The translations under genes and the position numbers were made by a program. The notes under the pieces were generated by a model. The model was not told the DNA's origin. It was given only the letters and a program-made list of their open reading frames with translations, and searched no databases. This document shows positions 44,557 through 59,958 of a stretch of 64,000 nt of DNA, piece by piece. Source of the DNA: an uncultured Cytophagales bacterium (GTDB lineage: Bacteria > Bacteroidota > Bacteroidia > Cytophagales > JAAEPT01); NCBI GenBank assembly GCA_964511645.1, contig CAZEGV010000003.1, positions 2,591 to 66,590 on the forward strand. The letters run 5' to 3'. Every line of letters starts with the position of its first letter. Positions within the stretch are counted from its first letter, which is position 1.

Positions 44557-45462
44557 ATGGATTGGGCTAACGACATAAAGTATTTTAAAAATTATCTAAA
44601 ACTAGAAAGAGGATTGTCAGCTAACTCTATAGATGCTTATATCCGTGATATTCAGAAGCTAGAGCAGTATTTAGAGTTAAACGGCATTGATAAAAATCCC
44701 AAAGAGGTTATCTCTGATGATATACAAGGATTGCTCGGTTTGATTTATGAGATGGGAATGTCTCCATACAGTCAAGCAAGAATACTCTCAGGAATCAAAA
44801 CTTTTTTTAATTACCTCGTCCTCGAAGATATAATTGAGCTTAGTCCCGCTGTACTTATCCAGTCACCCAAGTTGGGACGTAAACTACCCGATACACTTAG
44901 TTATATAGAAATAGAAGAGATACTAGATGAATTCGATATGTCATCTCCAGAAGGGTTTAGGAACAGGGCAATGGTGGAATTGCTTTATAGTTCTGGCTTG
45001 CGAGTAAGCGAATTGGTGAACCTAAGCATAGGAGATGTATTGTTTGATATTTCTTTTTTGAGAATAATGGGGAAAGGTGGTAAAGAACGCCTTGTGCCAG
45101 TAGGGAAAGACGCTCTTAAATATCTCAAAATGTATTTGAATGAAATAAGAGTGCATGTGCCAACTCAAATAGGTGAAGAAAATATTGTGTTTTTGAATAG
45201 GAGAGGAAAACGCCTTACTAGAGTAATGATTTTTACAATAGTTAAGAATATAGCTAAAACAGTAGGGATTAGTAAAAAAGTCAGTCCTCATACCTTTAGG
45301 CATTCATTTGCTACCCATATGGTAGAAGGTGGAGCTGACCTTAGAGTCGTACAAGAGATTTTGGGGCACGAGTCAATTGTGACTACCGAAATCTATACCC
45401 ACATAGATAGAGACTATCTCAGACAAGTGATGCAGGACTTTCACCCTAGGAGTAAGGTCTGA
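44557..45462 (+). CDS. xerD: Tyrosine recombinase XerD
   Basis: 301 aa with the SAM-like N-terminus YLKLERGLSANSIDAYIRD. The catalytic residues sit in ..GLRVSELVNL.., HTFRHSFATHMVEGGADLRVVQEILGHESIVTTEIYTH. Confidence 0.9.
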   Translation: MDWANDIKYFKNYLKLERGLSANSIDAYIRDIQKLEQYLELNGIDKNPKEVISDDIQGLLGLIYEMGMSPYSQARILSGIKTFFNYLVLEDIIELSPAVLIQSPKLGRKLPDTLSYIEIEEILDEFDMSSPEGFRNRAMVELLYSSGLRVSELVNLSIGDVLFDISFLRIMGKGGKERLVPVGKDALKYLKMYLNEIRVHVPTQIGEENIVFLNRRGKRLTRVMIFTIVKNIAKTVGISKKVSPHTFRHSFATHMVEGGADLRVVQEILGHESIVTTEIYTHIDRDYLRQVMQDFHPRSKV

Positions 45463-46615: not shown

Positions 46616-46725
46616 GGGCGTAACCTCATTTTGCTGAAAAAGCTCATGAGGTCGGGCTTTCGCTACTCAATCTTCCTGATGAAAAATCAGGAAGGATTTC
46701 AAACAAACCGCTCAATCCCTTACGC
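46616..46725 (+). repeat. Modular hairpin repeat, copy E
   Basis: (TTA)GGGCGTA-[ACCTCATttGCTgaaaaAGCtcATGAGGT]-CGGGCTTTCGCTACTCAATC-[TTCCTGAtgaaaaaTCAGGAA]-GGATTTCAAACAAACCGCTCAATCCCTTACGC. It starts 5 nt after the stop at 46611. Confidence 0.65.
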
Positions 46726-46837
46726 ATGAAGTAGTTTTATGCCATAGATACATTATAAGTTTTGTTAAATGATAACAAATGTCATTTTTTATTAAACATT
46801 CAATTACTTTATTGCTCTGAGGTAAATAAAAGTAATT

Positions 46838-47536
46838 ATGTTTAGTCAAGGTCAATCACTTCGAGAGCTTTATAATCTTGATTCTTCTGTTGAAGAACTA
46901 GTAAAACGGTACGGCTTAGAAAAAGAAGGAGATAAATTAATAGAACAACTGTGTAAAGAAAAATTAATAGATGTTCCTTTTTTTATGGAGTTGATTAAAA
47001 TATTTCACAATACAGATTATTTCCCCCAAAAGCAGTTATTATCTTTTGATATTACAATTGTTTTAGACTATTTACAGCGTACTCACCGTTATTACATTGG
47101 TCGTAGATTACCAGAAATTGAGCAAATGGTACAAAATATTGTGTCAAATGATGAGAATGAATTTGCTTCTTTTTTACTACCATTTTTCAGGACGTTAAAA
47201 ACAAACTTAACAGAGCATATAAAAGAAGAGGAAAAGCAACTATTCCCATATATCATTGCTTTAAATCAAAGGTTAGATAGTTTAACAACAAAATTCAAAA
47301 ACACTTTTATTGCTTCTTTTGCAGATAGTCATAATCACTTAATAGAGGATCAACTAGTACTTGCTAGAAGTGTGCTTATCGAAAATGAGAAAAAGACATT
47401 AGATACAATGCCTTTACGAGTGCTAATTTATCAATTAGACTTACTCGAAAAAGACTTGCGTTTACACGCTAAAATAGAAGATCATGTATTGATGCCTAAA
47501 GCAAGATTACTTGAGAAGGAATTAAATATTAGTTAG
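46838..47536 (+). CDS. Hemerythrin-like / RIC (YtfE-type di-iron) family protein
   Basis: 232 aa. The segments LDYLQRTHRYYIGRRLPEIE, EHIKEEEKQLFPYI and LHAKIEDHVLMPKA resemble the H..E/H-containing helices of RIC/ScdA proteins as I recall them. Confidence 0.55.
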   Translation: MFSQGQSLRELYNLDSSVEELVKRYGLEKEGDKLIEQLCKEKLIDVPFFMELIKIFHNTDYFPQKQLLSFDITIVLDYLQRTHRYYIGRRLPEIEQMVQNIVSNDENEFASFLLPFFRTLKTNLTEHIKEEEKQLFPYIIALNQRLDSLTTKFKNTFIASFADSHNHLIEDQLVLARSVLIENEKKTLDTMPLRVLIYQLDLLEKDLRLHAKIEDHVLMPKARLLEKELNIS

Positions 47537-47539
47537 GTA

Positions 47540-48892
47540 TTAAATTGTTTTGCTAAATTGTTTTTCTTTAATATTGTCACTGTTGTTGAGGTATTGGTCA
47601 AAACTCATGCATATATTACGTACAAAATTTTCTCCAGATTCGGTTACACTTAGTCTGTTATCCGAAAATACAAGTAGGTTATCTTTTTCCATTTCGGCGA
47701 GATCTTGTTTTGCTTGTTTGTATAGGTTTTGCTCAAACTCAGAATCATTGAAGGTAGTTTTATATTGACACATTAATGCTTTAATATGTCTCTGTACTAT
47801 TTTATCAGTATCAGTAAGTTTTGTACCATTAGTAAAGGTGAAATTTCCTTGAGCTATTTTTTTTTGATAAGTGTAAGCATTTTTTTCGTTCTGAACATAT
47901 AAGTCTCTCGTTTCACTAATGCTAGAAGCACCCAGCCCAATTAGCCATTTAGAGTCAGTAGTGGTGTAACCCATAAAGTTTCTGTGCAAATTACCAGATT
48001 GATGAGCCTTAGCTAGAGAGTCATCAGGCAAGGCAAAATGATCCATTCCAATACTTTCGTACCCAATTTGTTCTAAATGTTTTTTTCCTGCGTTAAACAA
48101 GTCCCATTTGCCACTTCCAGTAGGAAGGTCATTTTCTGTAAAAAGGCGTTGAGCATTTTTTTTCCATGGCACATGAGCATAACTGTAAAAGGCAATTCGG
48201 CTAGGTTGTAGCTTTTCTACTAATTTTATCGTGTCTATAATTGAGCTAGTAGTCTGAAACGGCAATCCGTAGATAAGGTCAAAGTTAGTTTCTTTAAAAC
48301 CTAAATCACTGATCCAATTCATCACTTCGACTACAGTTTTATTGGGTTGTAAGCGATTAATCGCTTCTTGTACTTTTTTGTTACTGTCTTGTATTCCTAG
48401 GCTAATTCGGTTTACACCCTTATTACGAAGAGCTTTGAGTTGCTCATAAGAAACCTTCATTGGGTTTACTTCTACACTGATAGTAGCACTATTCAGTATG
48501 TCTGCATTTTTTCCTAAAAACTCAAAAAGTTGTGTTAAATGTTCAGGACTAAAAAAAGTAGGAGTTCCTCCACCAAGATAAATTTCTTGGATTTTAGGAC
48601 GGTCAGGAAAAATGCTTAGGTACATTTCCCATTCTTGTGCTAAAGCATCCAGATAAGGTTTTTCTACATTGTGATTTTTTGTAATGACTTTATTACAAGC
48701 ACAAAATGTACAATATTCTTCACAGAAAGGCAGGTGAAGATAAAGGCTTATGCCTTTTTTGTTGGCACTTAAAAAATTACTTTCTAAATTTGATTTCCAT
48801 TCGTCAATTGATGGTTTTCCATTCCAGTAAGGAACTGTTGGGTAGCTTGTATATCTAGGGCCAGGTACATCGTATTTCTCTAGTAAACTCAT
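47540..48892 (-). CDS. hemN: Oxygen-independent coproporphyrinogen III oxidase (radical SAM)
   Basis: 450 aa with PRYTSYPT, the radical SAM site LHLPFCEEYCTFCACN, and GGGTPTF. Confidence 0.9.
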   Translation of the reverse strand: MSLLEKYDVPGPRYTSYPTVPYWNGKPSIDEWKSNLESNFLSANKKGISLYLHLPFCEEYCTFCACNKVITKNHNVEKPYLDALAQEWEMYLSIFPDRPKIQEIYLGGGTPTFFSPEHLTQLFEFLGKNADILNSATISVEVNPMKVSYEQLKALRNKGVNRISLGIQDSNKKVQEAINRLQPNKTVVEVMNWISDLGFKETNFDLIYGLPFQTTSSIIDTIKLVEKLQPSRIAFYSYAHVPWKKNAQRLFTENDLPTGSGKWDLFNAGKKHLEQIGYESIGMDHFALPDDSLAKAHQSGNLHRNFMGYTTTDSKWLIGLGASSISETRDLYVQNEKNAYTYQKKIAQGNFTFTNGTKLTDTDKIVQRHIKALMCQYKTTFNDSEFEQNLYKQAKQDLAEMEKDNLLVFSDNRLSVTESGENFVRNICMSFDQYLNNSDNIKEKQFSKTI

Positions 48893-48950
48893 ATTACCAA
48901 ACTTGCTTAAACTTGCGGGAATTAAAAAAAGTATAAGTCAATATTAATGA

Positions 48951-48962
48951 TGACTTATATCA
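48951..48962. promoter_or_regulatory. FNR/FixK-type half-palindrome TGAC-N4-ATCA inside nested TGAT/ATCA palindromes, in the hemN/ccoI divergent promoter
   Basis: The box is TGACTTATATCA. It is embedded in TTAATGAT-N7-ATCATTAA (48944-48966) and overlaps ATAAGTCA-N10-TGACTTAT (48933-48958). It lies about 61-64 nt from both ATGs. Confidence 0.3.
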
Positions 48963-49017
48963 TTAAATGATAAATTTTAAAATATCATAATTGTAAAAAA
49001 TAAGAGAAGAATAACTT

Positions 49018-51393
49018 ATGCCGAGTAAATGCTTTCATTGTGGGGATAATTGTGATGTTGAAGAAATTAAATTTGACGAAAAACTTTTTTGTTGTAACGG
49101 TTGTAAGGTTGTGTATGATATTCTAAAATCAAATGATCTTTGTACTTATTATGATTTGGATGCTCAGCCTGGGTTTAAGTATAAGGTAAATGAAGATGTA
49201 AGTAAATTTGACTACTTAGATAATTCAGAGGTTGTTACTGCTTTATGTGACTTTGAAAGTGAAAACCGTGTGCATATTACTTTTTATGCTCCTCAAATGC
49301 ATTGCCATTCTTGTGTCTGGTTATTAGAGAAATTACCTGTTTTGGAACCATCTATTATAAGGTCTTCCGTTCATTTTATAAAAAAAACAATCCATATAGA
49401 ATATAACCCTCAAGAAGTTAAATTGAGCAAAATCGTGACTTTATTAACTCAGTTAGGCTATGAACCAGTGATTCGCTTAGAAAAAAACCTCAGCCAATCA
49501 CAACCTTGGATAGATAAGAAAACAATTGTACAATTAGGAATATCAGGCTTTTGTTTTGGTAATATTATGTTTTTTAGTTTTCCTGAGTATGTGTCAGGAT
49601 TTACCCCTATACCAGAGAAGTTTAGTTATTTTTTTGGTATTGTTAGTTTGTTTCTAGCAACAGTATTATTGTTTGTAGGTGCAAAATATTATTTACGATC
49701 TAGCTTTGATGCTATCAAACATCACAAAATGAATATTAATATCCCTATCTCTTTAGGGATTATTGCTTTATACGGAGTAAGTGCTGTAGAGATTGTCGCT
49801 AAGTTAGGGACTGGTTATTTAGACTCTCTTGCAGGATTTATCTTTTTTCTTTTGTTAGGAAGAGTTTTTCAACAAAAAACGTTTGATCACCTTTCATTTG
49901 AGCGAGACTATAAGTCGTATTTCCCAATGGCTGTCACAAAGGTAAAAGGGGATAAGAATATTTCAACTCCCATAACCCAATTAAAAGTAAAAGATCGCAT
50001 CCAATTAAAAAATGAAGAAATTATCCCTGCTGATGGGGTTTTGTTAAGTGAAAAAGTAGCGATAGATTATAGCTTTGTAACAGGAGAAAGTGATGCTGTA
50101 AAGAGGAAAGTAGGAGAGTTGCTTTATGCAGGAGGTAGAGTGAAAGGAGCTGGAGCACTTGTCGAAATCACAAAAACTCCCGATAAAAGTTATTTAACTA
50201 AATTATGGAATCGGCAGTCTCAAACAGATTCAGTAGCCTCTTTAAGTATATTAAGTGATCGTGTAGCTAGTTATTTTACTTGGATAGTCTTATTAGTTGC
50301 TTTTTTGACGGGAGGGTACTGGCTTTTTATTGATTTAGGAGTAGCGTTAAGAGTATTTACTTCTGTATTGATTGTAGCTTGCCCCTGTGCTTTGGCATTA
50401 GCAATTCCTTTTGCCTATGGTAACATGGTACGCCATTTTGGTAGTATGCATTTTTTTCTGAAAGACATCGCTTATGTAGAAAAACTCACTGAAGTAAATC
50501 TTGTGGTTTTTGATAAAACGGGTACACTAACCACTGCCGAGGAAGGAGGAGTAGAATTTATTGGGGAACCTTTAAGTAAGAAACAGTCTACTTTAATTCA
50601 ATCTCTTGTGAGTTTGAGTAATCACCCGATGAGTGTAAGGATTTCTGATTTTTTACCTCCTAATACTTTACAAGTAAATAGATTTAAAGAGTTAATAGGA
50701 AAAGGATTGACAGGTTTTGTAGAGAAGGATTTCATAAAGGTTGGGTCAGCAGATTTTATAGATGCAGAGATAAAGAATAAAACAGCAGTATATGTCCAAA
50801 TTAATGATTTGGTGTTGGGTTATTTTGACACGAAGTCTATTTTAAGGGAAGGGTTGAAAGAGTTGTTTGAAGAAGTCTCTCAAACTTCTGAAATCGCAAT
50901 CGTATCGGGAGATAGCGAAAAAGATGAAGTATTATTAAAATCTATATCATCTATAAAAATACCTACATATTTTAATCAATCCCCTTTTGATAAGCAAACT
51001 CTTATAGAGTCATGGAGTACTAAAGGCACTCAAGTAATGATGCTTGGAGATGGGTTAAACGATGCGGGAGCTCTTCATGTCAGTGGAATAGGCGTTGCTA
51101 TTACTGATAATTTAGCTCATTTTACACCAGCTTCCGATGCTATTTTACATGGTTCTAAATTAGTATTTTTACCTGCTTTTATAAAAGCTTCCGCCAAAAC
51201 AAAAAGTATAGTAAAACTTTGTTTTGGAATATCTTTTTCATACAATTTAGTAGGATTGTATTATGCCGCCCAAGGACTTCTTTCCCCAGTTTTTTCTGCC
51301 TTATTGATGCCTATATCATCTATTACGGTTGTCTTGGTAGCCATTCTTTTCACCAATCAAATAGCTAAAAACACAAAAAAAGAGATTGATTAA
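49018..51393 (+). CDS. ccoI: Copper-translocating P1B-type ATPase of the CcoI/FixI type
   Basis: 791 aa with an N-terminal Cys-rich domain (CFHCGDNC..CCNGCK), an HMA-like MHCHSCV motif, CPC in the TM region, DKTGTLT and GDGLNDAGAL. Confidence 0.85.
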   Translation: MPSKCFHCGDNCDVEEIKFDEKLFCCNGCKVVYDILKSNDLCTYYDLDAQPGFKYKVNEDVSKFDYLDNSEVVTALCDFESENRVHITFYAPQMHCHSCVWLLEKLPVLEPSIIRSSVHFIKKTIHIEYNPQEVKLSKIVTLLTQLGYEPVIRLEKNLSQSQPWIDKKTIVQLGISGFCFGNIMFFSFPEYVSGFTPIPEKFSYFFGIVSLFLATVLLFVGAKYYLRSSFDAIKHHKMNINIPISLGIIALYGVSAVEIVAKLGTGYLDSLAGFIFFLLLGRVFQQKTFDHLSFERDYKSYFPMAVTKVKGDKNISTPITQLKVKDRIQLKNEEIIPADGVLLSEKVAIDYSFVTGESDAVKRKVGELLYAGGRVKGAGALVEITKTPDKSYLTKLWNRQSQTDSVASLSILSDRVASYFTWIVLLVAFLTGGYWLFIDLGVALRVFTSVLIVACPCALALAIPFAYGNMVRHFGSMHFFLKDIAYVEKLTEVNLVVFDKTGTLTTAEEGGVEFIGEPLSKKQSTLIQSLVSLSNHPMSVRISDFLPPNTLQVNRFKELIGKGLTGFVEKDFIKVGSADFIDAEIKNKTAVYVQINDLVLGYFDTKSILREGLKELFEEVSQTSEIAIVSGDSEKDEVLLKSISSIKIPTYFNQSPFDKQTLIESWSTKGTQVMMLGDGLNDAGALHVSGIGVAITDNLAHFTPASDAILHGSKLVFLPAFIKASAKTKSIVKLCFGISFSYNLVGLYYAAQGLLSPVFSALLMPISSITVVLVAILFTNQIAKNTKKEID

Positions 51394-51426
51394 ATGATAT
51401 GTTTATAGCGAATGTTTTTTTTAAAC

Positions 51427-51438
51427 TGATTTTTATCA
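51427..51438. promoter_or_regulatory. FNR/FixK-type palindrome TGAT-N4-ATCA upstream of ccoS-ccoNO
   Basis: The box is TGATTTTTATCA (14-mer cTGATttttATCAt versus consensus TTGAT-N4-ATCAA). A TATATTTG (TAnnTTTG) -7 box sits at 51484-51491, and the ccoS ATG is at 51510. Confidence 0.4.
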
Positions 51439-51509
51439 TTAATTGTATTGAGTCATATTGTTTTTTTAAACAAGAGATACTTTTATATTTGCTTCAAATT
51501 ACAAAGGTA

Positions 51510-51671
51510 ATGAACATCATATTTGTATTGATAGGAATGAGTATTGGGGTGGCTACGCTATTTTTGGTCGGATTTATTTGGGCAGTAAAAACAGGTCAAT
51601 TTGATGATACACATACACCATCAATTAGAATGTTGTTTGATGACAAACCAATCAAAAATAAAAAAAAGTAA
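51510..51671 (+). CDS. ccoS: cbb3 oxidase maturation protein CcoS
   Basis: From ATG 51510 it reads MNIIFVLIGMSIGVATLFLVGFIWAVKTGQFDD...RMLFDD, a typical CcoS/FixS. The track start at 51399 is probably spurious. Confidence 0.8.
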   Translation: MNIIFVLIGMSIGVATLFLVGFIWAVKTGQFDDTHTPSIRMLFDDKPIKNKKK

Positions 51672-51677
51672 TAACAA

Positions 51678-53813
51678 ATGGCTTTAGAACAATTTGAATA
51701 CGACAATAAGATAGTAAGAAATTTTTCTTACGCTACTATGGTTTGGGGACTTGTAGGAATGCTCGTTGGAGTTATTGCTGCTTTTCAGATATTCATTCCA
51801 GATATGAACTTTGATTTGCCATACACCACATTTGGTAGAGTTAGACCATTACATACAAATGCAGTGATTTTTGCTTTTGTAGGGAATGGTATCTTTACAG
51901 GAGTTTACTATTCATTACAACGTTTGTGTAAAGCAAGGATGTTCAGTGATACCTTAAGTAAGATCCATTTTTGGGGTTGGCAATTAATCATTGTAGCTGC
52001 CGCCGTAACCTTACTGTTAGGTTTTACAACAAGTAAGGAGTACGCAGAGTTAGAATGGCCGATAGATATTGCTATTACTGTTATTTGGGTAGTCTTTGGT
52101 TGGAACATGATGGGGACAATCATTAAACGTAGAGAAAGGCATTTATATGTCGGTATATGGTTTTACATAGCAACGTTTGTCACAGTCGCTATTTTACACC
52201 TTGTCAACTCATTTGAGATTCCTGTTACAATGTTCAAAAGTTACTCATGGTACGCAGGTGTTCAAGATGCACTTGTACAATGGTGGTATGGGCATAATGC
52301 GGTGGCCTTTTTCTTAACAACTCCTTATTTAGGTTTAATGTATTATTTCATTCCTAAAGTAGCCAATAGACCTGTTTATTCTTACAGACTATCAATTGTT
52401 CATTTTTGGGCTTTAATCTTTATTTATATTTGGGCAGGTCCTCATCATTTACTTTATTCGGCATTACCTGACTGGGCTCAGTCATTGAGTGTCGCCTTTT
52501 CTATTATGTTGATTGCACCATCTTGGGGCGGTATGATTAACGGTCTTTTGACATTGAGAGGTGGTTGGGATGATGTGAAAGAAAACCCAGTACTGAAGTT
52601 TATGGTAGTAGCAATAACCGCTTATGGGATGGCTACTTTTGAAGGTCCTGTATTATCTCTTAAGAATGTAAATGCAATTGCTCATTATACTGATTGGATT
52701 GTTGCTCACGTTCACTTAGGTGCTCTTGGGTGGAATGGGTTCTTGACATTTGGTATGTTATACTGGTTAATCCCTAGGATTTTTCAAACAAAACTACATA
52801 GTATCAAAATGGCTAACACCCACTTTTGGATTGGTACATTAGGTATTTTGATGTACGCTTTACCAATGTATTGGGCAGGATTTGCTCAAGGATTTATGTG
52901 GAAACAATTTACAGCAGAAGGGCAATTAGAATATGGTTTCTTAGAAACTGTAACCAACCTGATTCCAATGTATGCAATGAGAGGTGTTGGTGGACTTCTT
53001 TTCTTAACTGGGGCTATCATGATGGTGGTTAATCTATATAAAACGATTAAATCAGGAACTTTATTAGCTAATGAAGCCGCGGAAGCACCTAAACTAGAAA
53101 AAGTAAAAGGAAGGTTTGCAGGTGAGCATTGGCATGCTAGAATTGAGCGTAAACCAGTATTGTTATTGATATTAGCTACCGTAGCTATTTTGGTAGGAAC
53201 AATTATTGAATTTGTACCAACATTCTTAGTAGAGTCTAATGTGCCTACAATCGCTAGTGTAAAACCATACACACCGTTAGAACTACAAGGAAGAGACTTG
53301 TACATAAGAGAAGGGTGTAATAATTGCCACTCTCAAATGATTCGTCCTTTCCGTTCTGAAACTGAAAGATACGGTGAGTACAGTAAAGCTGGAGAATTTG
53401 TTTATGATCATCCATTCTTGTGGGGATCTAAGCGAACTGGACCAGATTTACACAGAGAAGGAGGTAAGAAATCAAACTCATGGCATTATCAACACATGAT
53501 GGACCCTACCAATACTTCACCAGGTTCTATTATGCCACGTTACCCATGGTTTATCGAAGATAAATTGGATAACTCAAGTCTTAAAGCTAAGATTTCTGCA
53601 ATGCGCACAATTGGAGTTCCTTACGCAGAAGGATTTGAAGATATCTGCTTAGATGATTTAAAAACTCAAGCAACTGAAATTGCAGCAGCAACATCTAAAG
53701 AATTGCAAGATATGGCAAAAGATAAAAGCATAGTTGTGTCGGCAGATAGAGAAATAATAGCATTAATTGCTTACTTGCAACGTCTAGGAACAGATATATC
53801 AGCATCTAAATAA
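51678..53813 (+). CDS. ccoN: cbb3-type cytochrome c oxidase, fused subunits I and II (CcoN-CcoO)
   Basis: 711 aa. The heme-copper oxidase subunit I core carries His ligands (..HFWALIF.., AHVHLGALGW). The C-terminal CcoO part has the CNNCHS heme-c site. Confidence 0.95.
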   Translation: MALEQFEYDNKIVRNFSYATMVWGLVGMLVGVIAAFQIFIPDMNFDLPYTTFGRVRPLHTNAVIFAFVGNGIFTGVYYSLQRLCKARMFSDTLSKIHFWGWQLIIVAAAVTLLLGFTTSKEYAELEWPIDIAITVIWVVFGWNMMGTIIKRRERHLYVGIWFYIATFVTVAILHLVNSFEIPVTMFKSYSWYAGVQDALVQWWYGHNAVAFFLTTPYLGLMYYFIPKVANRPVYSYRLSIVHFWALIFIYIWAGPHHLLYSALPDWAQSLSVAFSIMLIAPSWGGMINGLLTLRGGWDDVKENPVLKFMVVAITAYGMATFEGPVLSLKNVNAIAHYTDWIVAHVHLGALGWNGFLTFGMLYWLIPRIFQTKLHSIKMANTHFWIGTLGILMYALPMYWAGFAQGFMWKQFTAEGQLEYGFLETVTNLIPMYAMRGVGGLLFLTGAIMMVVNLYKTIKSGTLLANEAAEAPKLEKVKGRFAGEHWHARIERKPVLLLILATVAILVGTIIEFVPTFLVESNVPTIASVKPYTPLELQGRDLYIREGCNNCHSQMIRPFRSETERYGEYSKAGEFVYDHPFLWGSKRTGPDLHREGGKKSNSWHYQHMMDPTNTSPGSIMPRYPWFIEDKLDNSSLKAKISAMRTIGVPYAEGFEDICLDDLKTQATEIAAATSKELQDMAKDKSIVVSADREIIALIAYLQRLGTDISASK

Positions 53814-53819
53814 TTTGTT

Positions 53820-54014
53820 ATGTATAAAGATATTTTACAATCGGTAGAAGGAATTGATATTTATCCTATTATCTCTTTGGTGATATTTGTGATATTCTTC
53901 GTCGCTATATTTCTGTATGTATTTATAATAAAAGAAGAAACAGTAGAACAGTTAAAAAATATCCCTTTAGAATTATCTAAAAATGAAATTAATAAAGAAG
54001 TACATCATGGATAA
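53820..54014 (+). CDS. ccoQ: CcoQ/FixQ-like small membrane subunit
   Basis: 64 aa with a single TM helix (IYPIISLVIFVIFFVAIFLYVFII). It sits between ccoNO and ccoP. Confidence 0.6.
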   Translation: MYKDILQSVEGIDIYPIISLVIFVIFFVAIFLYVFIIKEETVEQLKNIPLELSKNEINKEVHHG

Positions 54015-54825
54015 ACTATTAAAAAAATATTCGGTTTTAGTACTGATGTTATTAGCAACATCAAGCACTACTTTTGCAACAGAAGGTACAAAAGAAAGTT
54101 ATTCCTTTACGAGTAATGATGCTCTGCTAAGCTTTGGGGTCTTTGTATTCTTTATTGTGTTCTTAGGTCTTTTATTTTTAGTGATAGGTTTTGGAAGGTA
54201 TGTACGCAAAACATTAATAGAAGCCGGTCAGAAACCTTCTTGGTTAGTAAACCTATTTGGAATATTTGACGGAGACTTACAATTATTCACTGGAGAGGAT
54301 AGCGATGTTTTACTTGAGGCACATGATTATGATGGTATTCAAGAATATGATAATGACTTACCACCTTGGTGGAAACAAATGTTTTACCTAACTATTGTTT
54401 TTGGAATAGCATATATGGCTTATTATCATGTGTTTGACGGACCTTCTTCGGCAGATGAATACGATGCAGAAGTTGCCGCAGCACAATTACTATATGCAGA
54501 TGTTGACATGACTTACGATAAAATAACTGAAGATAACGCAGCCTTAGAAACAGCAAAAGTTTCGTTTTCTCAAACTTGTGTAGCTTGTCATGGTAAAGAA
54601 TTAGGCGGTGGGTTGGGACCTAACTTGACTGATAAATACTGGATATACGGAGGTGATGTAAATGATGTTTATAAAACTATTAAGTATGGTGCTAAAAAAG
54701 GAATGGCCGCATGGAAAAGTAAATTTAGTAACAAAGAGATTTACGAATTAGCTTCTTATGTTTTAACCTTACAAGGGACTAAACCAGTTAACGCAAAAGA
54801 CCCAGAAGGAGAACTTCAAAAATAA
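54007..54825 (+). CDS. ccoP: cbb3-type oxidase subunit III (CcoP), apparently mono-heme
   Basis: Start set at ATG 54007 (MDKLLKKYSVL.., a signal/TM segment). It has the CcoP N-terminal motif HDYDGIQEYDNDLPPWW and a single CVACHG site. It overlaps ccoQ by 8 nt. Confidence 0.85.
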   Translation: MDKLLKKYSVLVLMLLATSSTTFATEGTKESYSFTSNDALLSFGVFVFFIVFLGLLFLVIGFGRYVRKTLIEAGQKPSWLVNLFGIFDGDLQLFTGEDSDVLLEAHDYDGIQEYDNDLPPWWKQMFYLTIVFGIAYMAYYHVFDGPSSADEYDAEVAAAQLLYADVDMTYDKITEDNAALETAKVSFSQTCVACHGKELGGGLGPNLTDKYWIYGGDVNDVYKTIKYGAKKGMAAWKSKFSNKEIYELASYVLTLQGTKPVNAKDPEGELQK

Positions 54826-54841
54826 TAACAGAGAAGACTAA

Positions 54842-56269
54842 ATGGCAGAAGAAAAAAAGGATAGTTTACTCTTACCAGATATAACTAAAGAAGAAGGATT
54901 TAGGCAAAGAATATCTACGGTAGGTGAAGACGGAGACCGCAAATGGATTTTTCCAAAAAAACCATTTGGTAAGTTCCATAATGCGAGAGTGTTTGTTACT
55001 ATCTTTCAGTTGGCAGTGCTTTTTGGAATGCCGTTTGTGAGAGTAAATGGAGAGCCTTTAATTTTGCTAAATGTAATTGAACGTAAGTTTATTTTATTCG
55101 GTATTACTTTTTGGCCCCAAGACTTTTTTATTCTCGCCCTCTTATTTATTGTGAGTATAGTCTTTATTGTGCTGTTCACAGTGCTGTTTGGACGTATATT
55201 TTGTGGTTGGGTTTGCCCTCAGACTGTTTTTATGGAAATGGTGTTTCGTAAAATTGAGTACTGGATAGAAGGAGATTTTAATAAACAAAAAGCACTAGCC
55301 AAAGCACCTTGGACAAAAGAGAAGATGTTCAAAAAAGGATTGAAGCACATTGTTTTCTTTGCGATAGCAGTCTTGATTGCTAATGTCACTTTAGCCTATA
55401 TTATTGGTACAGACGAACTCTTTACACTAATCTTGTCACCTATCTCAGAGCATGCTTTAGGATTTGTTTTAATGATTGTTTTTAGTGCTGTTTTTTATTG
55501 GATATTTGGTTGGTTTAGGGAGCAGGTTTGTTTGATTGCCTGCCCTTACGGTAGACTTCAGGGAGTAATGCTCAATAATGATAGTGTAGTAGTGGCTTAT
55601 GACTATGTAAGAGGAGAGCCTAGAGGGAAATTAAAGAAAAATCAAGAGACAAACAATGGAGATTGTGTAACATGTAATCTTTGTGTACACGTATGCCCTA
55701 CGGGGATTGACATCAGAAACGGTACTCAGCTAGAGTGCGTCAATTGCACAGCCTGTATAGATGTTTGTGACCATGTGATGGATAAAGTTGATAAACCAAA
55801 AGGTTTAATTAGGTACGCATCCGAAAATAATATAAAAAACGGTACTAAATTCAAGTTTGACGGAAGAGTCAAAATATACTCAGCGATATTATTGTTATTA
55901 GTAGCAGGAATAGTAGTCTTGCTATCAACAAGAGAAGATGTTCAAGCTACCATTTTGAGAAGTGGAGGCTCTATGTTTAAAAAAGAAGACAACGGTAACT
56001 ATTCCAATGTATACGAAGCCAGTTTGATTAATAAGACTGCTGACACAATACACCTATCTATCAAAATAGAAAACAAACAAGGAATTATAAACCTATTGAA
56101 TCATGAATGGACAGCACCACCACAATCAATCATCAAGCGAGTAATAATCCTTGAGTTACCTAAAGTAGAGTTAGAAGGAATGTCTACAAAACTGAAACTA
56201 GGTATTTATGATGACAAAGGAGAACTACTAACAACAACCAAGACCAAGTTTTTAGGACCAATTCATTAA
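54842..56269 (+). CDS. ccoG: Cytochrome c oxidase accessory protein CcoG (4Fe-4S ferredoxin-type)
   Basis: 475 aa with FCGWVCPQT, CPYGRLQ, CVTCNLCVHVCPTGIDIR and CVNCTACIDVC. Confidence 0.9.
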   Translation: MAEEKKDSLLLPDITKEEGFRQRISTVGEDGDRKWIFPKKPFGKFHNARVFVTIFQLAVLFGMPFVRVNGEPLILLNVIERKFILFGITFWPQDFFILALLFIVSIVFIVLFTVLFGRIFCGWVCPQTVFMEMVFRKIEYWIEGDFNKQKALAKAPWTKEKMFKKGLKHIVFFAIAVLIANVTLAYIIGTDELFTLILSPISEHALGFVLMIVFSAVFYWIFGWFREQVCLIACPYGRLQGVMLNNDSVVVAYDYVRGEPRGKLKKNQETNNGDCVTCNLCVHVCPTGIDIRNGTQLECVNCTACIDVCDHVMDKVDKPKGLIRYASENNIKNGTKFKFDGRVKIYSAILLLLVAGIVVLLSTREDVQATILRSGGSMFKKEDNGNYSNVYEASLINKTADTIHLSIKIENKQGIINLLNHEWTAPPQSIIKRVIILELPKVELEGMSTKLKLGIYDDKGELLTTTKTKFLGPIH

Positions 56270-56275
56270 TAAGAC

Positions 56276-56731
56276 ATGACAAACGAAAAGAAAAGCTTAA
56301 TTCCATACTTTATAATTACCGCCTTTGTATTATTTATGATGTTTATTGGGCAATTTATTTACCGCAGTATTAACTTACCTGTTAACCTAGTCAGTGACGA
56401 TTATTATGAGAAAGAGCTAAAATACCAAGACCATATTGATATGGTGAAAAGATCTACCGAGTTAAATAAAAAAATAAAAATATCATACCTTCAACAGCAA
56501 GTAATTGTTCAAATTAAATTCCCTGAAAACATAAAAATAGAAAAAGGAATAGTTCATTTTTACCGTGCAGACGACAGTAGATTGGATCAAAAAATCGCAT
56601 TAAAAAACGATAAGAAAAACACAACATCAATTTCTAGTGAAAATTTAAAAAAAGGACCTTGGATAGTAAAACTATTTTACCAAATACAATCCGTCAACTA
56701 CTTTTTAGAACAGAAAATTTGGATAAAATGA
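56276..56731 (+). CDS. FixH/CcoH-family protein
   Basis: 151 aa with an N-terminal TM helix followed by a small beta-rich domain. Its position after ccoG is the canonical one. Confidence 0.7.
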   Translation: MTNEKKSLIPYFIITAFVLFMMFIGQFIYRSINLPVNLVSDDYYEKELKYQDHIDMVKRSTELNKKIKISYLQQQVIVQIKFPENIKIEKGIVHFYRADDSRLDQKIALKNDKKNTTSISSENLKKGPWIVKLFYQIQSVNYFLEQKIWIK

Positions 56732-57414
56732 TTCTAGGGTTGATACTTGGGTTCACCACTAGTTTACATTGTGTAGGCATGTGTGGACCTCTTCATTTGG
56801 CACTTCCTCTCAAAAAAGGAGTCAACACAAACATCATAGCTTTGCACCTTGGTAGGATTTTTACGTATATGATTCTTGGTGTTTTTGCAGGTATTATTGG
56901 AGAAGTTTTTCGTGCCACAGGAATCCATAATTGGGTAGCTATTATATCAGGAGTAATTATTATTGCAGCAGTTTTGATAGAAGGGATTCCATACTTCAAA
57001 AGTGATTTAATTTCATCATGGTTAAAGAAAAGCTTAAGTCAATTATTTAAAAAAAGTACCACCTGGCGTTTTTTTGTTTTTGGTCTAGCCAATGGTCTTT
57101 TACCATGCGGAATGGTTTATTTTGCTCTATTAACAGCTACCAGTTATGGAGATACGGGAGCTATTGTATTTATGGGGCTTTTTGGTTTGGGTACGGTGTC
57201 ACTACTCGTAATCACTTCTACTTTAGGTAGTTTTTTTAAAGAACATTTCTTGATTAAACAAAAATATGTACTCATAGCATTGGGCTGTTTGCTGATTGTC
57301 AGAGGCTCTTCGTTGGGCATCCCTTACCTAAGTCCTAGCGAAGAAAAATCATGTTGTCACAAAGCTCAAACAGAAGAAACCTCTAGCTGTTGCGAAAAGA
57401 AATATAAAGATTAG
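56728..57414 (+). CDS. TauE/SafE- or DsbD_2-like membrane protein with a Cys-rich C-terminal tail
   Basis: Start at ATG 56728, forming an ATGA overlap with the fixH stop. It has the HCVGMCGP motif and six TM helices. The tail reads EEKSCCHKAQTEETSSCCEKKYKD. Confidence 0.7.
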   Translation: MILGLILGFTTSLHCVGMCGPLHLALPLKKGVNTNIIALHLGRIFTYMILGVFAGIIGEVFRATGIHNWVAIISGVIIIAAVLIEGIPYFKSDLISSWLKKSLSQLFKKSTTWRFFVFGLANGLLPCGMVYFALLTATSYGDTGAIVFMGLFGLGTVSLLVITSTLGSFFKEHFLIKQKYVLIALGCLLIVRGSSLGIPYLSPSEEKSCCHKAQTEETSSCCEKKYKD

Positions 57415-57552
57415 GGCGTGCCCCCACTCGCCAAAAAGGCGAGCTCGTGGGGTCAGGATATCCGCACTCACCAACATTCATTTCGTTTCACTACATTCAT
57501 GTTGGTTCAAACAATCGCTTACTGTGTTCGTCTACCGACGAATCCCTCACGC
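57414..57552 (+). repeat. Modular hairpin repeat, copy F
   Basis: GGGCGTGC-[CCCCACTCGCCaaaaaGGCGAgctcGTGGGG]-TCAGGATATCCGCACTCA-[CCAACATtcatttcgtttcactacattcATGTTGG]-TTCAAACAATCGCTTACT-GTGTTCGTCTACCGACGAATCCCTCACGC. Its first G is the last base of the preceding TAG stop. Confidence 0.65.
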
Positions 57553-57612
57553 ATTTTATTCTACCCTTTTGATGTTTTTTATGTTAAAAACTGATTTTTG
57601 TTAGCTCATTAG

Positions 57613-58887
57613 TTGGTTTATTTTTCTATTATTGAGTTTAAATACAGAAAATTGAAAGAACAGCAGAAAAACAAACTATTTGATGCCAGTGAAATTTGTG
57701 AAGCAATTTACAATTTCAGTGTAGAAGCTATTATTATCACAGACCAAAAAGGCGTGATAGCACATGCTAACCCCACAGCATTGAGCTTATTTGACTATAA
57801 ACTTTTAGATTTAGTAGGTCAATCAGTATCTGTTTTAGTACCACTAGACGTACGACATAAGCATGATGCCTATGTCGAAGAGTTTTCTCATTCGACCTCT
57901 TCAAGAACGATGGATGGTATGGCAGGTTTAAGAGCCGTCAAAAAATGTGGAGAAGAATTTCCCGTTTCTATCAGTTTAAGCCCAGCAGTTATTGATGGTC
58001 AGCACTTCACAGTAGCGTTGGTAATTGATATTACAGAATCCAAAAAGATAAAAGAAAAATTGCAACAACATAACAAAGAGTTGGAGCAACGAGTAGCCAA
58101 AAGAACAGAAGAACTAGCAGACACAGTAAGAAACTTAGAAAAAGTAAACGCTGAATTAAAAAAAGCAGAAGGAGAAGTAAGAAAATCTTTAGAAAAAGAA
58201 CGGAAATTAAATGAACTAAAATCTCGATTTGTATCTATGGCTTCACATGAATTTAGGACACCATTAGGTACTATTCTCTCATCACTAACCCTGATAGCGA
58301 AGCACAGTAAAGATGCTCATACTGACAAACAGCAAAAACACTTTTTGAGAATTAGATCTAATGTAAAACACCTTACAAATGTATTGAATGATTTTTTGTC
58401 AATAGATATCCTGAAAAGTGATAAACTTGTAATAAACCTTGAACAAGTTGATTTGAATGATTTGTTTGAAGAATTACAAGAAGAATTTAACCAGATGAAA
58501 AAAGCTGGGCAAATCATAAAAATTGATATTCCTGTTGAAACCTTTTTGTTTTCGGATAAACACATTCTTAAAAACATTTTCCTAAATTTAGTAAGCAACG
58601 CCATAAAATACTCTAGTACAGGAAAAGAGATATTAATTTCTGTAAGAGAAGGATTTAATAAAATGAGTGTAGCAATAAAAGACCAAGGAATAGGAGTTCC
58701 ATTAGAAGATCAGGTTCATCTATTCGAAAGATTTTATAGAGCGACTAATGCAGCCAATATTCAAGGCACAGGTTTAGGTTTAAATATCGTGAAACATTAT
58801 GTAGAGTTGTTACACGGTACAATACAGTTCAAAAGTAAATATGAAGTAGGTTCTACGTTTTATATTGAGTTTCCCACAGAAAAATAA
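57613..58887 (+). CDS. Soluble PAS-domain sensor histidine kinase (FixL-like PAS)
   Basis: 424 aa (TTG start as in the track; the exact start is uncertain). The PAS region runs EAIIITDQKGVIAHANP...LVPLDVRHKHDAYVEEF...GEEFPVSISLSP...VIDITE. It is followed by a coiled coil, the H-box SMASHEFRTPL, the N-box NLVSNAIKYS and the G-boxes DQGIGV and GTGLGL. Confidence 0.85.
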   Translation: MVYFSIIEFKYRKLKEQQKNKLFDASEICEAIYNFSVEAIIITDQKGVIAHANPTALSLFDYKLLDLVGQSVSVLVPLDVRHKHDAYVEEFSHSTSSRTMDGMAGLRAVKKCGEEFPVSISLSPAVIDGQHFTVALVIDITESKKIKEKLQQHNKELEQRVAKRTEELADTVRNLEKVNAELKKAEGEVRKSLEKERKLNELKSRFVSMASHEFRTPLGTILSSLTLIAKHSKDAHTDKQQKHFLRIRSNVKHLTNVLNDFLSIDILKSDKLVINLEQVDLNDLFEELQEEFNQMKKAGQIIKIDIPVETFLFSDKHILKNIFLNLVSNAIKYSSTGKEILISVREGFNKMSVAIKDQGIGVPLEDQVHLFERFYRATNAANIQGTGLGLNIVKHYVELLHGTIQFKSKYEVGSTFYIEFPTEK

Positions 58888-58893
58888 AAAACC

Positions 58894-59958
58894 ATGAAAA
58901 GTAAAATTTTATTGATTGAAGATAATTTTGAGGTAAGAGACAATACCGCAGAAATTTTAGAGTTGGCAAATTTTGAAGTGATTACTGCTGAGAATGGAAA
59001 GATTGGAGTGGAAAAAGCTAGAGAAGAACTTCCTGACCTTATTATATGCGACATAATGATGCCTGTATTGGATGGTTATGGGGTGTTACATATCCTGTCT
59101 AAGAAAAAAGAAACAGCAAAAATCCCTTTTATTTTTTTAACAGCCAAAGCAGATAAAGCTGACTTCCGTAAAGGAATGAATCTTGGAGCTGATGATTACC
59201 TTACAAAACCATTTGAAGAAACAGAACTGATGGACGCAATTGAAGTCCGTATAAAGAAAAGTGCAAAAATCAATGAAAAAATAGGGAATAGTGTAGAAGA
59301 TTTACAATCATTTATGGATGGTGCCAGAGATTTGGCTCAGCTTGAATTCATCAAAGAATCTAGGATTACAAAATCATATAAAAAGAAAGAAGCTATTTAT
59401 AGAGAGTCTGACTTTGCAAACTCTGTCTATTTCATTAAGTCAGGGAGGGTCAAAACATACAGAATCAATGATGATGGCAAAGAATTTATCACAGGTCTAC
59501 ATAAAGCAGGAGATTTTATAGGTTATCTAGCAGTACTAGAGGATAAAAACCGATCGGAATGTGCGATAGTCTTAGAAGATACTTCCCTCGCTTTAATTAG
59601 TAAAAAAGAATTATTAGAGTTGTTATATTCTAACAATGAGGTAGCATATAAGTTTATAGAATTATTATCAGGAAAGTTAGAATCTAAAGAACAAGAATTA
59701 ATAGATTTAGCCTTTAATACCGTCAGAAAAAGAGTGGCTGACGCTTTGCTTCGGCTAAAAAAGACTTACCAAGAAACAGAAGAAGATGGACAATTTTCTA
59801 TTTCTATCTCCAGAGGAGACTTAGCGGCGATAGTAGGTACAGCCAAAGAAAGCGTCATTAGAATTCTATCAGAGTTTAAAGAAGATGGTGTTATCTCGGT
59901 AAAAGGAAGTGAGATAAAAGTCAAAAAGACAAAAGTACTGCAAGAATTAAAGTATTAA
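58894..59958 (+). CDS. Hybrid response regulator: receiver domain fused to a CRP/FNR-family cNMP-binding-fold + HTH module
   Basis: 354 aa. The REC part has ILLIEDN, DLIICDIMMPVLDG, FIFLTAK and LTKPF. The CRP-like beta-roll follows (IYRESDFANSVYFIKSGRVKTYRINDDGKEFITG), then the HTH ISRGDLAAIVGTAKESVIRILSEFKEDG. Confidence 0.85.
   Translation: MKSKILLIEDNFEVRDNTAEILELANFEVITAENGKIGVEKAREELPDLIICDIMMPVLDGYGVLHILSKKKETAKIPFIFLTAKADKADFRKGMNLGADDYLTKPFEETELMDAIEVRIKKSAKINEKIGNSVEDLQSFMDGARDLAQLEFIKESRITKSYKKKEAIYRESDFANSVYFIKSGRVKTYRINDDGKEFITGLHKAGDFIGYLAVLEDKNRSECAIVLEDTSLALISKKELLELLYSNNEVAYKFIELLSGKLESKEQELIDLAFNTVRKRVADALLRLKKTYQETEEDGQFSISISRGDLAAIVGTAKESVIRILSEFKEDGVISVKGSEIKVKKTKVLQELKY

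Follow-up and report, generated by a model that had tools for sequence, protein, structure and literature searches.

A soluble FixL/DosP-type PAS kinase and a receiver-CRP/FNR hybrid regulator encoded beside the cbb3 oxidase genes of an uncultured Cytophagales bacterium: a candidate low-oxygen two-component switch

The kinase-regulator pair and its closest described counterparts

In rhizobia and Caulobacter, the FixL-FixJ-FixK cascade runs from a heme-PAS kinase (FixL) through a regulator composed of a receiver domain (REC) and a LuxR-type output (FixJ) to the CRP/FNR-type protein FixK, which controls fixNOQP, fixGHIS and hemN. To our knowledge, it has not been established how aerobic Bacteroidota (flavobacteria, Cytophagales and Chitinophagales) sense a fall in oxygen. 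Here we describe a histidine kinase and a response regulator encoded by neighbouring genes, close to those of a cbb3-type oxidase, in a 64-kb stretch of DNA (contig CAZEGV010000003.1, positions 2,591 to 66,590; hereafter the window) from an uncultured Cytophagales bacterium. As judged from its sequence, the pair rather probably forms one operon that encodes a complete two-component switch responding to low oxygen (or to another heme ligand or the redox state), and it is a good candidate for the low-oxygen switch of Bacteroidota. The features of the two genes, in window coordinates, are as follows.

57613..58887, plus strand: open reading frame (ORF) of a soluble sensor histidine kinase, 424 aa from TTG 57613 (ORF list, Pfam domains)
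57724..58038, plus strand: PAS domain (residues 38-142), apparent homologue of FixL/DosP-type heme-PAS domains (PDB sequence search, AlphaFold2 model, Foldseek)
57862-57864, plus strand: codon of His84, candidate proximal heme ligand (alignment to BjFixL His200)
58246..58248, plus strand: codon of His212, candidate phospho-accepting residue in the H box SHEFRTPL (HisKA match, alignment to HK853)
58894..59958, plus strand: hybrid response regulator, 354 aa, with receiver, linker helix, CRP/FNR beta-roll, dimerisation helix and winged helix-turn-helix (HTH)
58906..59244, plus strand: receiver domain (residues 5-117; Response_reg, 2e-27)
59050-59052, plus strand: codon of Asp53, candidate phospho-acceptor, invariant among homologues
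59371..59625, plus strand: beta-roll resembling cyclic nucleoside monophosphate (cNMP)-binding domains (residues 160-244; cNMP_binding, 6e-21), with a degenerate nucleotide pocket
59728..59949, plus strand: CRP-type HTH (residues 279-352; HTH_Crp_2, 4e-16)
59848-59862, plus strand: recognition helix E319-S-V-I-R323 (family alignment)

With FixL-FixJ-FixK the pair shares a homologous heme-PAS domain with a proximal His, a CRP/FNR-type final effector and, as predicted here, the target set ccoNOQP, ccoGHIS and hemN. The box predicted here, TGA-N6-TCA, is a palindrome related to the FixK box, TTGA-N6-TCAA, with the outer T/A missing. It differs from the cascade in using two proteins for three, with the receiver fused straight onto the CRP/FNR body. 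The partner of the kinase has, unlike FixJ, the domains REC, cNMP_binding and HTH_Crp_2 and no LuxR/GerE HTH, and the kinase itself, unlike FixL, has a core of another class and lacks the distal Arg220. The regulator resembles FNR, ANR and FnrL, which also control the cbb3 oxidase and hemN in many bacteria, in its body of beta-roll, dimerisation helix and HTH and in the Glu and Arg of the recognition helix. Unlike FNR, however, it has no [4Fe-4S] Cys site, its proposed input would come from a separate kinase via Asp53, and Ile stands in place of the Ser of the FNR motif E--SR. With cNMP-gated CRP it shares the Glu/Arg pair that reads the TGA/GTGA core (E181/R185 in CRP, E209/R213 in FNR), whereas Glu72 of the phosphate-binding cassette is not kept.

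Two further heme-based systems are comparable. DosS/DosT-DosR of mycobacteria has the same two-protein design of heme kinase and response regulator, and the regulon predicted here is likewise rich in universal stress protein (Usp) genes and includes HSP20/alpha-crystallin; but the heme of DosS/DosT is held in a GAF domain, the output of DosR is LuxR-type, and the DosR regulon has no cbb3 link. EcDOS/DosP has a homologous heme-PAS fold with a Met in the FG loop, but its output is a cyclic di-GMP phosphodiesterase with no histidine kinase, and its Met95 and Arg97 are without one-to-one counterparts here. On these sequence grounds the locus is placed outside the FixLJ family in the strict sense, and it is neither FNR nor CRP by sensing criteria.

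Sensor kinase and hybrid regulator

The initial annotation had described a kinase without membrane segments, consisting of PAS domain, coiled coil, HisKA and HATPase, followed after six nucleotides by a complete receiver fused to a CRP/FNR effector fold with HTH, and both descriptions were borne out by the ORFs, the Pfam matches and a check of the characteristic boxes and residues. In the kinase, Pfam placed PAS_9 at residues 38-142, HisKA at 203-263 and HATPase_c at 315-423, giving the order heme-PAS-like domain, coiled coil, HisKA and HATPase_c, and the H box (SH212EFRTPL) as well as the N, G1, F and G2 boxes could all be located. Inspection of the sequence revealed neither a hydrophobic N-terminus nor a membrane segment, as expected of a soluble protein. 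An independent gene call on the same sequence in another assembly starts the kinase at TTG 57652 (411 aa), and this start is more likely than TTG 57613 since it better fits the lengths of the homologues (412-414 aa). The gap between the kinase stop and the start of the regulator ORF is 6 nt. No curated NCBIfam family reached its cut-off with either protein.

By sequence and predicted fold, the PAS domain appears to be a homologue of the heme-PAS domains of FixL and DosP specifically. Searched alone against the PDB sequences (phmmer, E < 0.01), it matched 14 distinct sequences, every one a heme-PAS, among them BjFixL and RmFixL (8e-12 to 5e-9), E. coli DosP (5e-9) and the FG214 heme-PAS. Its AlphaFold2 model, built on 116 sequences with a mean predicted local distance difference test (pLDDT) score of 89.8, was compared with the PDB by Foldseek, and ranks 1-28 were all occupied by the heme domains of FixL, DosP and FG214 (E down to 9e-12, template modelling (TM) score about 0.8). 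A LOV or flavin PAS identity was considered and rejected, as LOV structures rank below all heme-PAS matches in the Foldseek search and no LOV protein appeared in the sequence search. The ungapped alignment to FixL in the initial annotation, which had kept the position of the proximal His and given a His-to-Phe-Pro spacing of 32 residues in both proteins, was reproduced: His84 aligns with the proximal His200 of BjFixL, and the distance to Phe-Pro is +32, equal to that of FixL. Of 120 homologues from the databases, 119 have this His, and so do all 17 kinases that adjoin a regulator homologue; the position of BjFixL H214 is Arg, Lys or His in nearly all of the 120. In FixL, His214 contacts a heme propionate. 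It is thus likely that the PAS domain of the window kinase binds heme.

The position of the O2-binding Arg (R220 in BjFixL) is filled by Arg in 71 of the 120 homologues, by Met in 24 and by Leu in 12, a distribution that suggests sub-types with different ligand chemistry. This O2-stabilising Arg is missing from the window kinase and from its closest relatives (Leu in locus L004, Met in locus L001), so that O2 as the ligand of the window kinase is uncertain, and the Met residues of its FG loop (DGM) lie near the distal Met95 of EcDOS. The wiring could therefore be the same with a signal other than O2, the PAS heme reporting NO, CO or redox in the six-coordinate manner of DosS or DosP, or the domain binding no heme. 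We regard this as unlikely, though not negligibly so, because the proximal His and the overall heme-PAS signature are kept and because the predicted targets (cbb3 oxidase, hemN and Usp) are classic low-oxygen genes that are induced by hypoxia in a flavobacterium (PMC9723704). A kinase homologue from a Mucilaginibacter metagenome-assembled genome (L015, 8811-10001) has a nearly canonical FixL heme pocket (…DREQHDEYINRYQRTHEPHIIGIGREVVGLRKDGTRFP…) with the Arg220 equivalent present; the kinase family thus covers FixL-like and divergent distal pockets alike.

The catalytic half of the kinase and the receiver bear on the suggestion of the initial annotation that the locus is a collapsed FixL-FixJ-FixK circuit. 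Kinase residues 190-423 best match the cores of HK853, WalK and PhoR-type kinases in the PDB sequence search. The receiver aligns to RR468 over its whole length and resembles RR468, PhoB and RpaA, and no FixJ entry is present among its 60 best PDB matches. The suggestion therefore stands as a functional analogy, but it does not extend to the kinase core and the receiver.

Across 32 aligned regulator homologues (55-68% identity), the receiver residues E9, D10, D53, T83 and K105 are invariant, as are E319, I322 and R323 of the recognition helix (TAKESVIR), so that the Glu and Arg noticed in the HTH by the initial annotation are fixed throughout the alignment. The effector half matches, in the PDB, Thermus CRP (4ev0, 6e-22), FNR (5cvr, 1e-19), CRP (1e-18) and FixK2 (4i2o, 2e-16). 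The full-length AlphaFold2 model (pLDDT 80.7) comprises the receiver, a linker helix (134-148), beta-roll, long helices and HTH, and Foldseek matched it to CRP and GlxR with TM scores (normalised to the target) of 0.75-0.83; no PDB chain spanning both halves was found. In the nucleotide pocket, CRP Glu72 is replaced by Tyr211, and the position of CRP Arg82 is Arg220 in the window protein and Tyr or His in most family members. The only Cys residues are C52 and C223 and the N-terminus is the receiver, which agrees with the earlier statement that an FNR-type N-terminal Cys cluster is lacking. As the usual inputs of CRP and FNR are thus missing, the receiver is the obvious input of the regulator.

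Predicted boxes, target genes and conservation of the pair

A binding motif was sought upstream of the kinase genes in related loci, which had been collected from genomes and metagenomes (98 loci, 78 after removal of near-duplicates). The 150 bp preceding the kinase gene were examined in 17 loci other than the window, and of all 832 palindromes with a 3-nt core and a spacer of 0-12 nt, TGA-N6-TCA ranked first, being present in 9 of the 17, where the remaining sequence of these loci would lead one to expect 1.17 (p = 3.9e-6). The search worked only with 3-nt cores; no exact palindrome with 4-nt half-sites was common to at least 5 loci. From these sites a symmetrised 20-bp position weight matrix (PWM) was made with the consensus AATATGAT-N4-ATCATATT, in which no window sequence was used. 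Over the 78 loci, the matrix gave 91 intergenic and 24 coding matches of at least 13 bits, with intergenic sequence making up 13% of the DNA, and the median distance of such matches to a start codon was 79 bp. Control matrices with spacers of N4, N5, N7 or N8 or with a reversed core gave only 2-5 intergenic matches each; the real matrix gave 69 in loci left out of its construction. The classic FNR/FixK box TTGAT-N4-ATCAA was set aside in favour of the family-derived motif, as it had 10 matches with at most one mismatch against 6.8 expected, none of them at cco promoters. The base 5' of TGA in the motif is T at a frequency of only 0.11. In FNR, the T of TTGAT is read by Ser212, and a motif without the outer T would fit the replacement of this Ser by the invariant Ile322.

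The genes predicted as targets by this box are, in order of number, the kinase-regulator operon itself (22 loci), Usp genes (22 genes in 18 loci), ccoI (5), ccoS/FixS and ccoNO (4), HSP20 (3), the cytochrome c genes heading nos clusters (2) and RIC/hemerythrin-like genes (2). In two loci, two TGA-N6-TCA boxes lie exactly 22 bp apart, i.e. two helical turns, upstream of the kinase (L002, 8317/8339; L004, 8681/8703), which suggests two dimers binding cooperatively.

It could be argued that the boxes belong to a separate, stand-alone FNR/FixK-like regulator and that the two-component system is merely a member of its regulon, with targets of its own. The core is generic for CRP/FNR proteins with the E...R pair, there are further Crp-family proteins in Bacteroidota genomes (one of them 9 kb from the pair in L001), and the visible part of the present genome amounts to 64 kb. 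However, the box is the top motif right before the kinase-regulator operon, and the boxes cluster within 10 kb of it; the rarity of T 5' of TGA (11%) goes together with the invariant Ile322 at the place of the T-reading Ser212 of FNR; in the Crp protein of L001 the cNMP pocket is canonical (GELFGELAL...RT) and the recognition helix another one (SRQTVT); and the window itself holds no other gene of the CRP family or with a receiver. We therefore consider a separate regulator improbable, and the hybrid regulator remains the preferred candidate for the protein that binds the boxes.

The genes upstream of the pair include all those listed in the initial annotation (hemN, ccoI, ccoS, ccoNO, ccoQ, ccoP, ccoG and fixH). 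These genes and the boxes predicted in the window are given below.

47540..57414, hemN on the minus strand and the others on the plus strand: predicted target region from hemN through the DsbD_2-family gene (Pfam, NCBIfam, small-ORF listing)
47540-48892, minus strand: hemN (passes TIGR00538 with 456 bits, cut-off 325)
49018-51393, plus strand: ccoI (Pfam)
51511-51671, plus strand: ccoS (Pfam, small-ORF listing)
51678-53813, plus strand: ccoNO fusion (Pfam)
53820-54014, plus strand: ccoQ-like gene (Pfam, small-ORF listing)
53983-54825, plus strand: ccoP (Pfam)
54842-56269, plus strand: ccoG (Pfam)
56276-56731, plus strand: fixH (Pfam)
56659-57414, plus strand: DsbD_2-family gene (Pfam)
51423..51442, no strand: predicted regulator box AAACTGATTTTTATCATTAA (TGA-N6-TCA), best PWM match in the 64 kb, 14.4 bits
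48947..48966, no strand: predicted regulator box ATGATGACTTATATCATTAA, fourth-best PWM match in the window, 12.3 bits
57588..57607, no strand: weak imperfect box AAACTGATTTTTGTTAGCTC (TGA-N6-TTA) upstream of the kinase, 7.9 bits
46769..46788, no strand: weak box ATGATAACAAATGTCATTTT, 8.0 bits, 59 bp upstream of the hemerythrin/RIC-like gene 46838-47536

The CRP/FNR-type box derived outside the window falls on its ccoS-ccoNO and hemN/ccoI promoters. The best match falls into the interval from the ccoI stop (51393) to the ccoS start (51511), ahead of ccoS-ccoNO-ccoQ-ccoP-ccoG-fixH, and its score was reached by 1 of 5000 dinucleotide shuffles of the region (p 2e-4). The fourth-best match lies in the divergent hemN/ccoI intergenic region of 125 bp, at distances of 65 bp and 61 bp from the starts of hemN and ccoI, respectively, and its score was reached by 10 of 5000 shuffles (p 2e-3); matches 2 and 3 are inside coding sequences, one of them in yajC. 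A longer perfect inverted repeat, TTAATGAT-N7-ATCATTAA (48944-48966), encloses the hemN/ccoI box. The left half of the weak box before the kinase is identical to that of the ccoS box over 12 nt, and strong boxes occupy the equivalent place upstream of the kinase in 21 other loci. The gene behind the weak box at 46769..46788 adjoins hemN and encodes a 232-aa protein with a C-terminal hemerythrin domain, a distant relative of RIC/YtfE/ScdA (below the NCBIfam cut-off). Its L004 orthologue, which adjoins the kinase-regulator pair, has a strong box (16.7 bits).

The kinase-regulator pair is a conserved operon. A first genome scan with full-length alignment had been swamped by generic receiver patterns, with only 13 of 80 loci being full-length relatives, and the metagenomes were therefore rescanned with the C-terminal half of the regulator only. 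All 72 regulators that are not truncated at the end of a contig have the receiver, and in 53 of the 55 non-redundant loci with enough sequence the gene immediately preceding that of the regulator encodes a PAS kinase; the hosts are Cytophagales, Chitinophagales, Sphingobacteriales and Flavobacteriales. The REC, cNMP_binding and HTH_Crp architecture itself forms a large Bacteroidota family: a HMMER search (E <= 1e-30) gave 1,776 representatives of 50%-identity clusters with similarity to the regulator, and the best 150 of these are nearly all collinear proteins of about 350 residues. Judged by this number of clusters, the architecture is common and not special to the present genome. The database names of the homologues are generic, e.g. 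'response regulator'.

Neighbours were counted within 10 kb of the pair in the 41 loci whose flanks measure 10 kb or more, CcoI being scored only if the match took in its specific N-terminus at about 40% identity. Synteny with cco genes, by which the initial annotation had proposed to judge the pair, is frequent (14 of 41 loci) but not universal, and Usp genes are the commonest neighbours (19 of 41), followed after cco by 2-hydroxyacid dehydrogenase (5), hemN (4) and nosZ clusters (2). These figures, together with the many loci without cco genes within 10 kb and the place of Usp as the commonest predicted target (22 genes, 18 loci), would also suit a system for general stress or stationary phase that has Usp genes at its centre, the cco adjacency of the present genome being incidental. 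Such a system is very improbable in our view: the two best truly intergenic boxes in the 64 kb are those of the cco and hemN/ccoI promoters, ccoI, ccoS/FixS and ccoNO carry boxes in several other genomes, and cco linkage in 34% of loci is far above the chance expectation, which by our own estimate (one cluster of about 8 kb in a 4-Mb genome) is below 1%.

In two loci (L003, 11060-20865; L119, 11828-12304), the pair and boxes adjoin a nos cluster of the clade II type, with genes for cytochrome c, nosZ, nosL, nosD and an ABC transporter, which is followed by ccoI-ccoS. This arrangement hints that N2O reduction is part of the same regulon in some genomes.

The proposed switch, its significance and minor features of the window

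We propose that the low-oxygen switch would operate as follows: 1) The FixL/DosP-type PAS domain of the soluble kinase most likely binds heme b via His84. 2) Through the coiled coil, the heme state (ligand-free or liganded, or oxidised) would be signalled to the PhoR/HK853-type core and govern its autophosphorylation on His212. 3) The phosphoryl group would pass to Asp53 of the adjacent regulator, a presumably dimeric CRP/FNR-type protein whose N-terminal receiver would replace the usual sensory input (cNMP or an Fe-S cluster). 4) Once phosphorylated, the regulator would dimerise or change the orientation of its dimer, and its two HTH motifs could then bind TGA-N6-TCA boxes. 5) The targets in the window would be ccoS-ccoNO-ccoQ-ccoP-ccoG-fixH and the divergent hemN/ccoI promoter and, in relatives, also the operon itself, Usp genes, HSP20, the RIC-like gene and nos clusters. 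6) Binding would switch on the structural and assembly genes of the cbb3 oxidase, hemN and stress genes. The sequence analysis establishes the domain identities, the conservation of residues and operon, the neighbourhood statistics and that the box exists, is specific and has the positions given. In this scheme, we infer heme binding, the nature of the signal, phosphotransfer, the regulator as the binder of the boxes, and activation over repression. The functional logic, in which one two-component pair would do the job of FixL-FixJ-FixK, is supported by the heme-PAS homology, the conserved operon, the recurrent neighbours (cco, hemN, Usp and nos) and the placement of the boxes.

Several observations count against this proposal: i) the position of BjFixL R220 in the window kinase is Ala (Ala104) in the ungapped alignment, a caveat already made in the initial annotation and a real one, or Gly in the HMMER alignment, and never Arg, ii) the FG loop of the window kinase, RTMDGMAGLRAV, deviates from the family consensus RxMGxGRDLxGxKK, iii) TGA-N6-TCA is a generic CRP/FNR core, so that another family member encoded in the genome could bind it, iv) the hemN/ccoI box can also be read in a second register, whose spacer is odd (7 nt), v) the box before the window's own kinase gene is imperfect (7.9 bits), and vi) cco genes are absent from the vicinity of the pair in about two thirds of the long-flank loci.

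In a literature search, neither a characterised REC-CRP/FNR regulator nor a FixL-type kinase from Bacteroidota came to light; the response-regulator censuses of Galperin were outside this search and may list the architecture. The regulator architecture is thus widespread yet without characterisation in the literature found. RgzAB of F. johnsoniae was considered as a described counterpart and dismissed, since its kinase is a different GAF hybrid kinase. In Flavobacterium psychrophilum, O2 limitation induces the cbb3 operon together with hemN, with UspA also up, and no regulator was named for this response (PMC9723704).

The window locus offers a concrete candidate for such a regulator, with a putative sensor residue (His84), a putative phosphorylation site (Asp53) and two predicted operator sequences. 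If the proposal holds, receiver phosphorylation would be a new input mode for the CRP/FNR superfamily, and the logic of FixLJ-FixK could be built with two proteins. As boxes precede nos clusters in some genomes, the switch may bear on N2O reduction, and also on host colonisation by fish pathogens. On a wider scale, and only tentatively, one may ask whether REC-CRP/FNR hybrids and heme-PAS kinases could be the missing master hypoxia switch of aerobic Bacteroidota. They would form a phylum-wide class of CRP/FNR proteins gated by Asp phosphorylation and directly controlling cbb3 biogenesis, hemN, Usp/HSP20 and in some cases N2O reductase, with the distal-pocket residue (Arg, Met, Leu or Ala) tuning which gas or redox signal is read. 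This wider proposal is plausible but doubtful.

Apart from the target region and the pair, the window holds a few minor features. A tyrosine recombinase gene (XerC/XerD-like, Phage_integrase; 44557-45462) lies about 2 kb upstream of the hemN-cco region; no mobile-element boundary was noticed there, and this gene was not examined further. The Flavo-1 small RNA family matches weakly (23.4 bits, gathering score 42, E = 0.39) on the minus strand at 46646-46730, a short way upstream of the hemerythrin/RIC-like gene. Scans for Rfam families and terminators around the kinase-regulator operon gave nothing above threshold. Between the DsbD_2-family gene and the kinase lies a unique GC-rich stretch of about 150 nt (57414-57560; 47% GC, about 33% nearby). 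This stretch has no Rfam match, occurs only once in the window and has a folding energy of -41 kcal/mol (z = -3.1; none of 200 shuffles as good); it could be a terminator/insulator or a small RNA.

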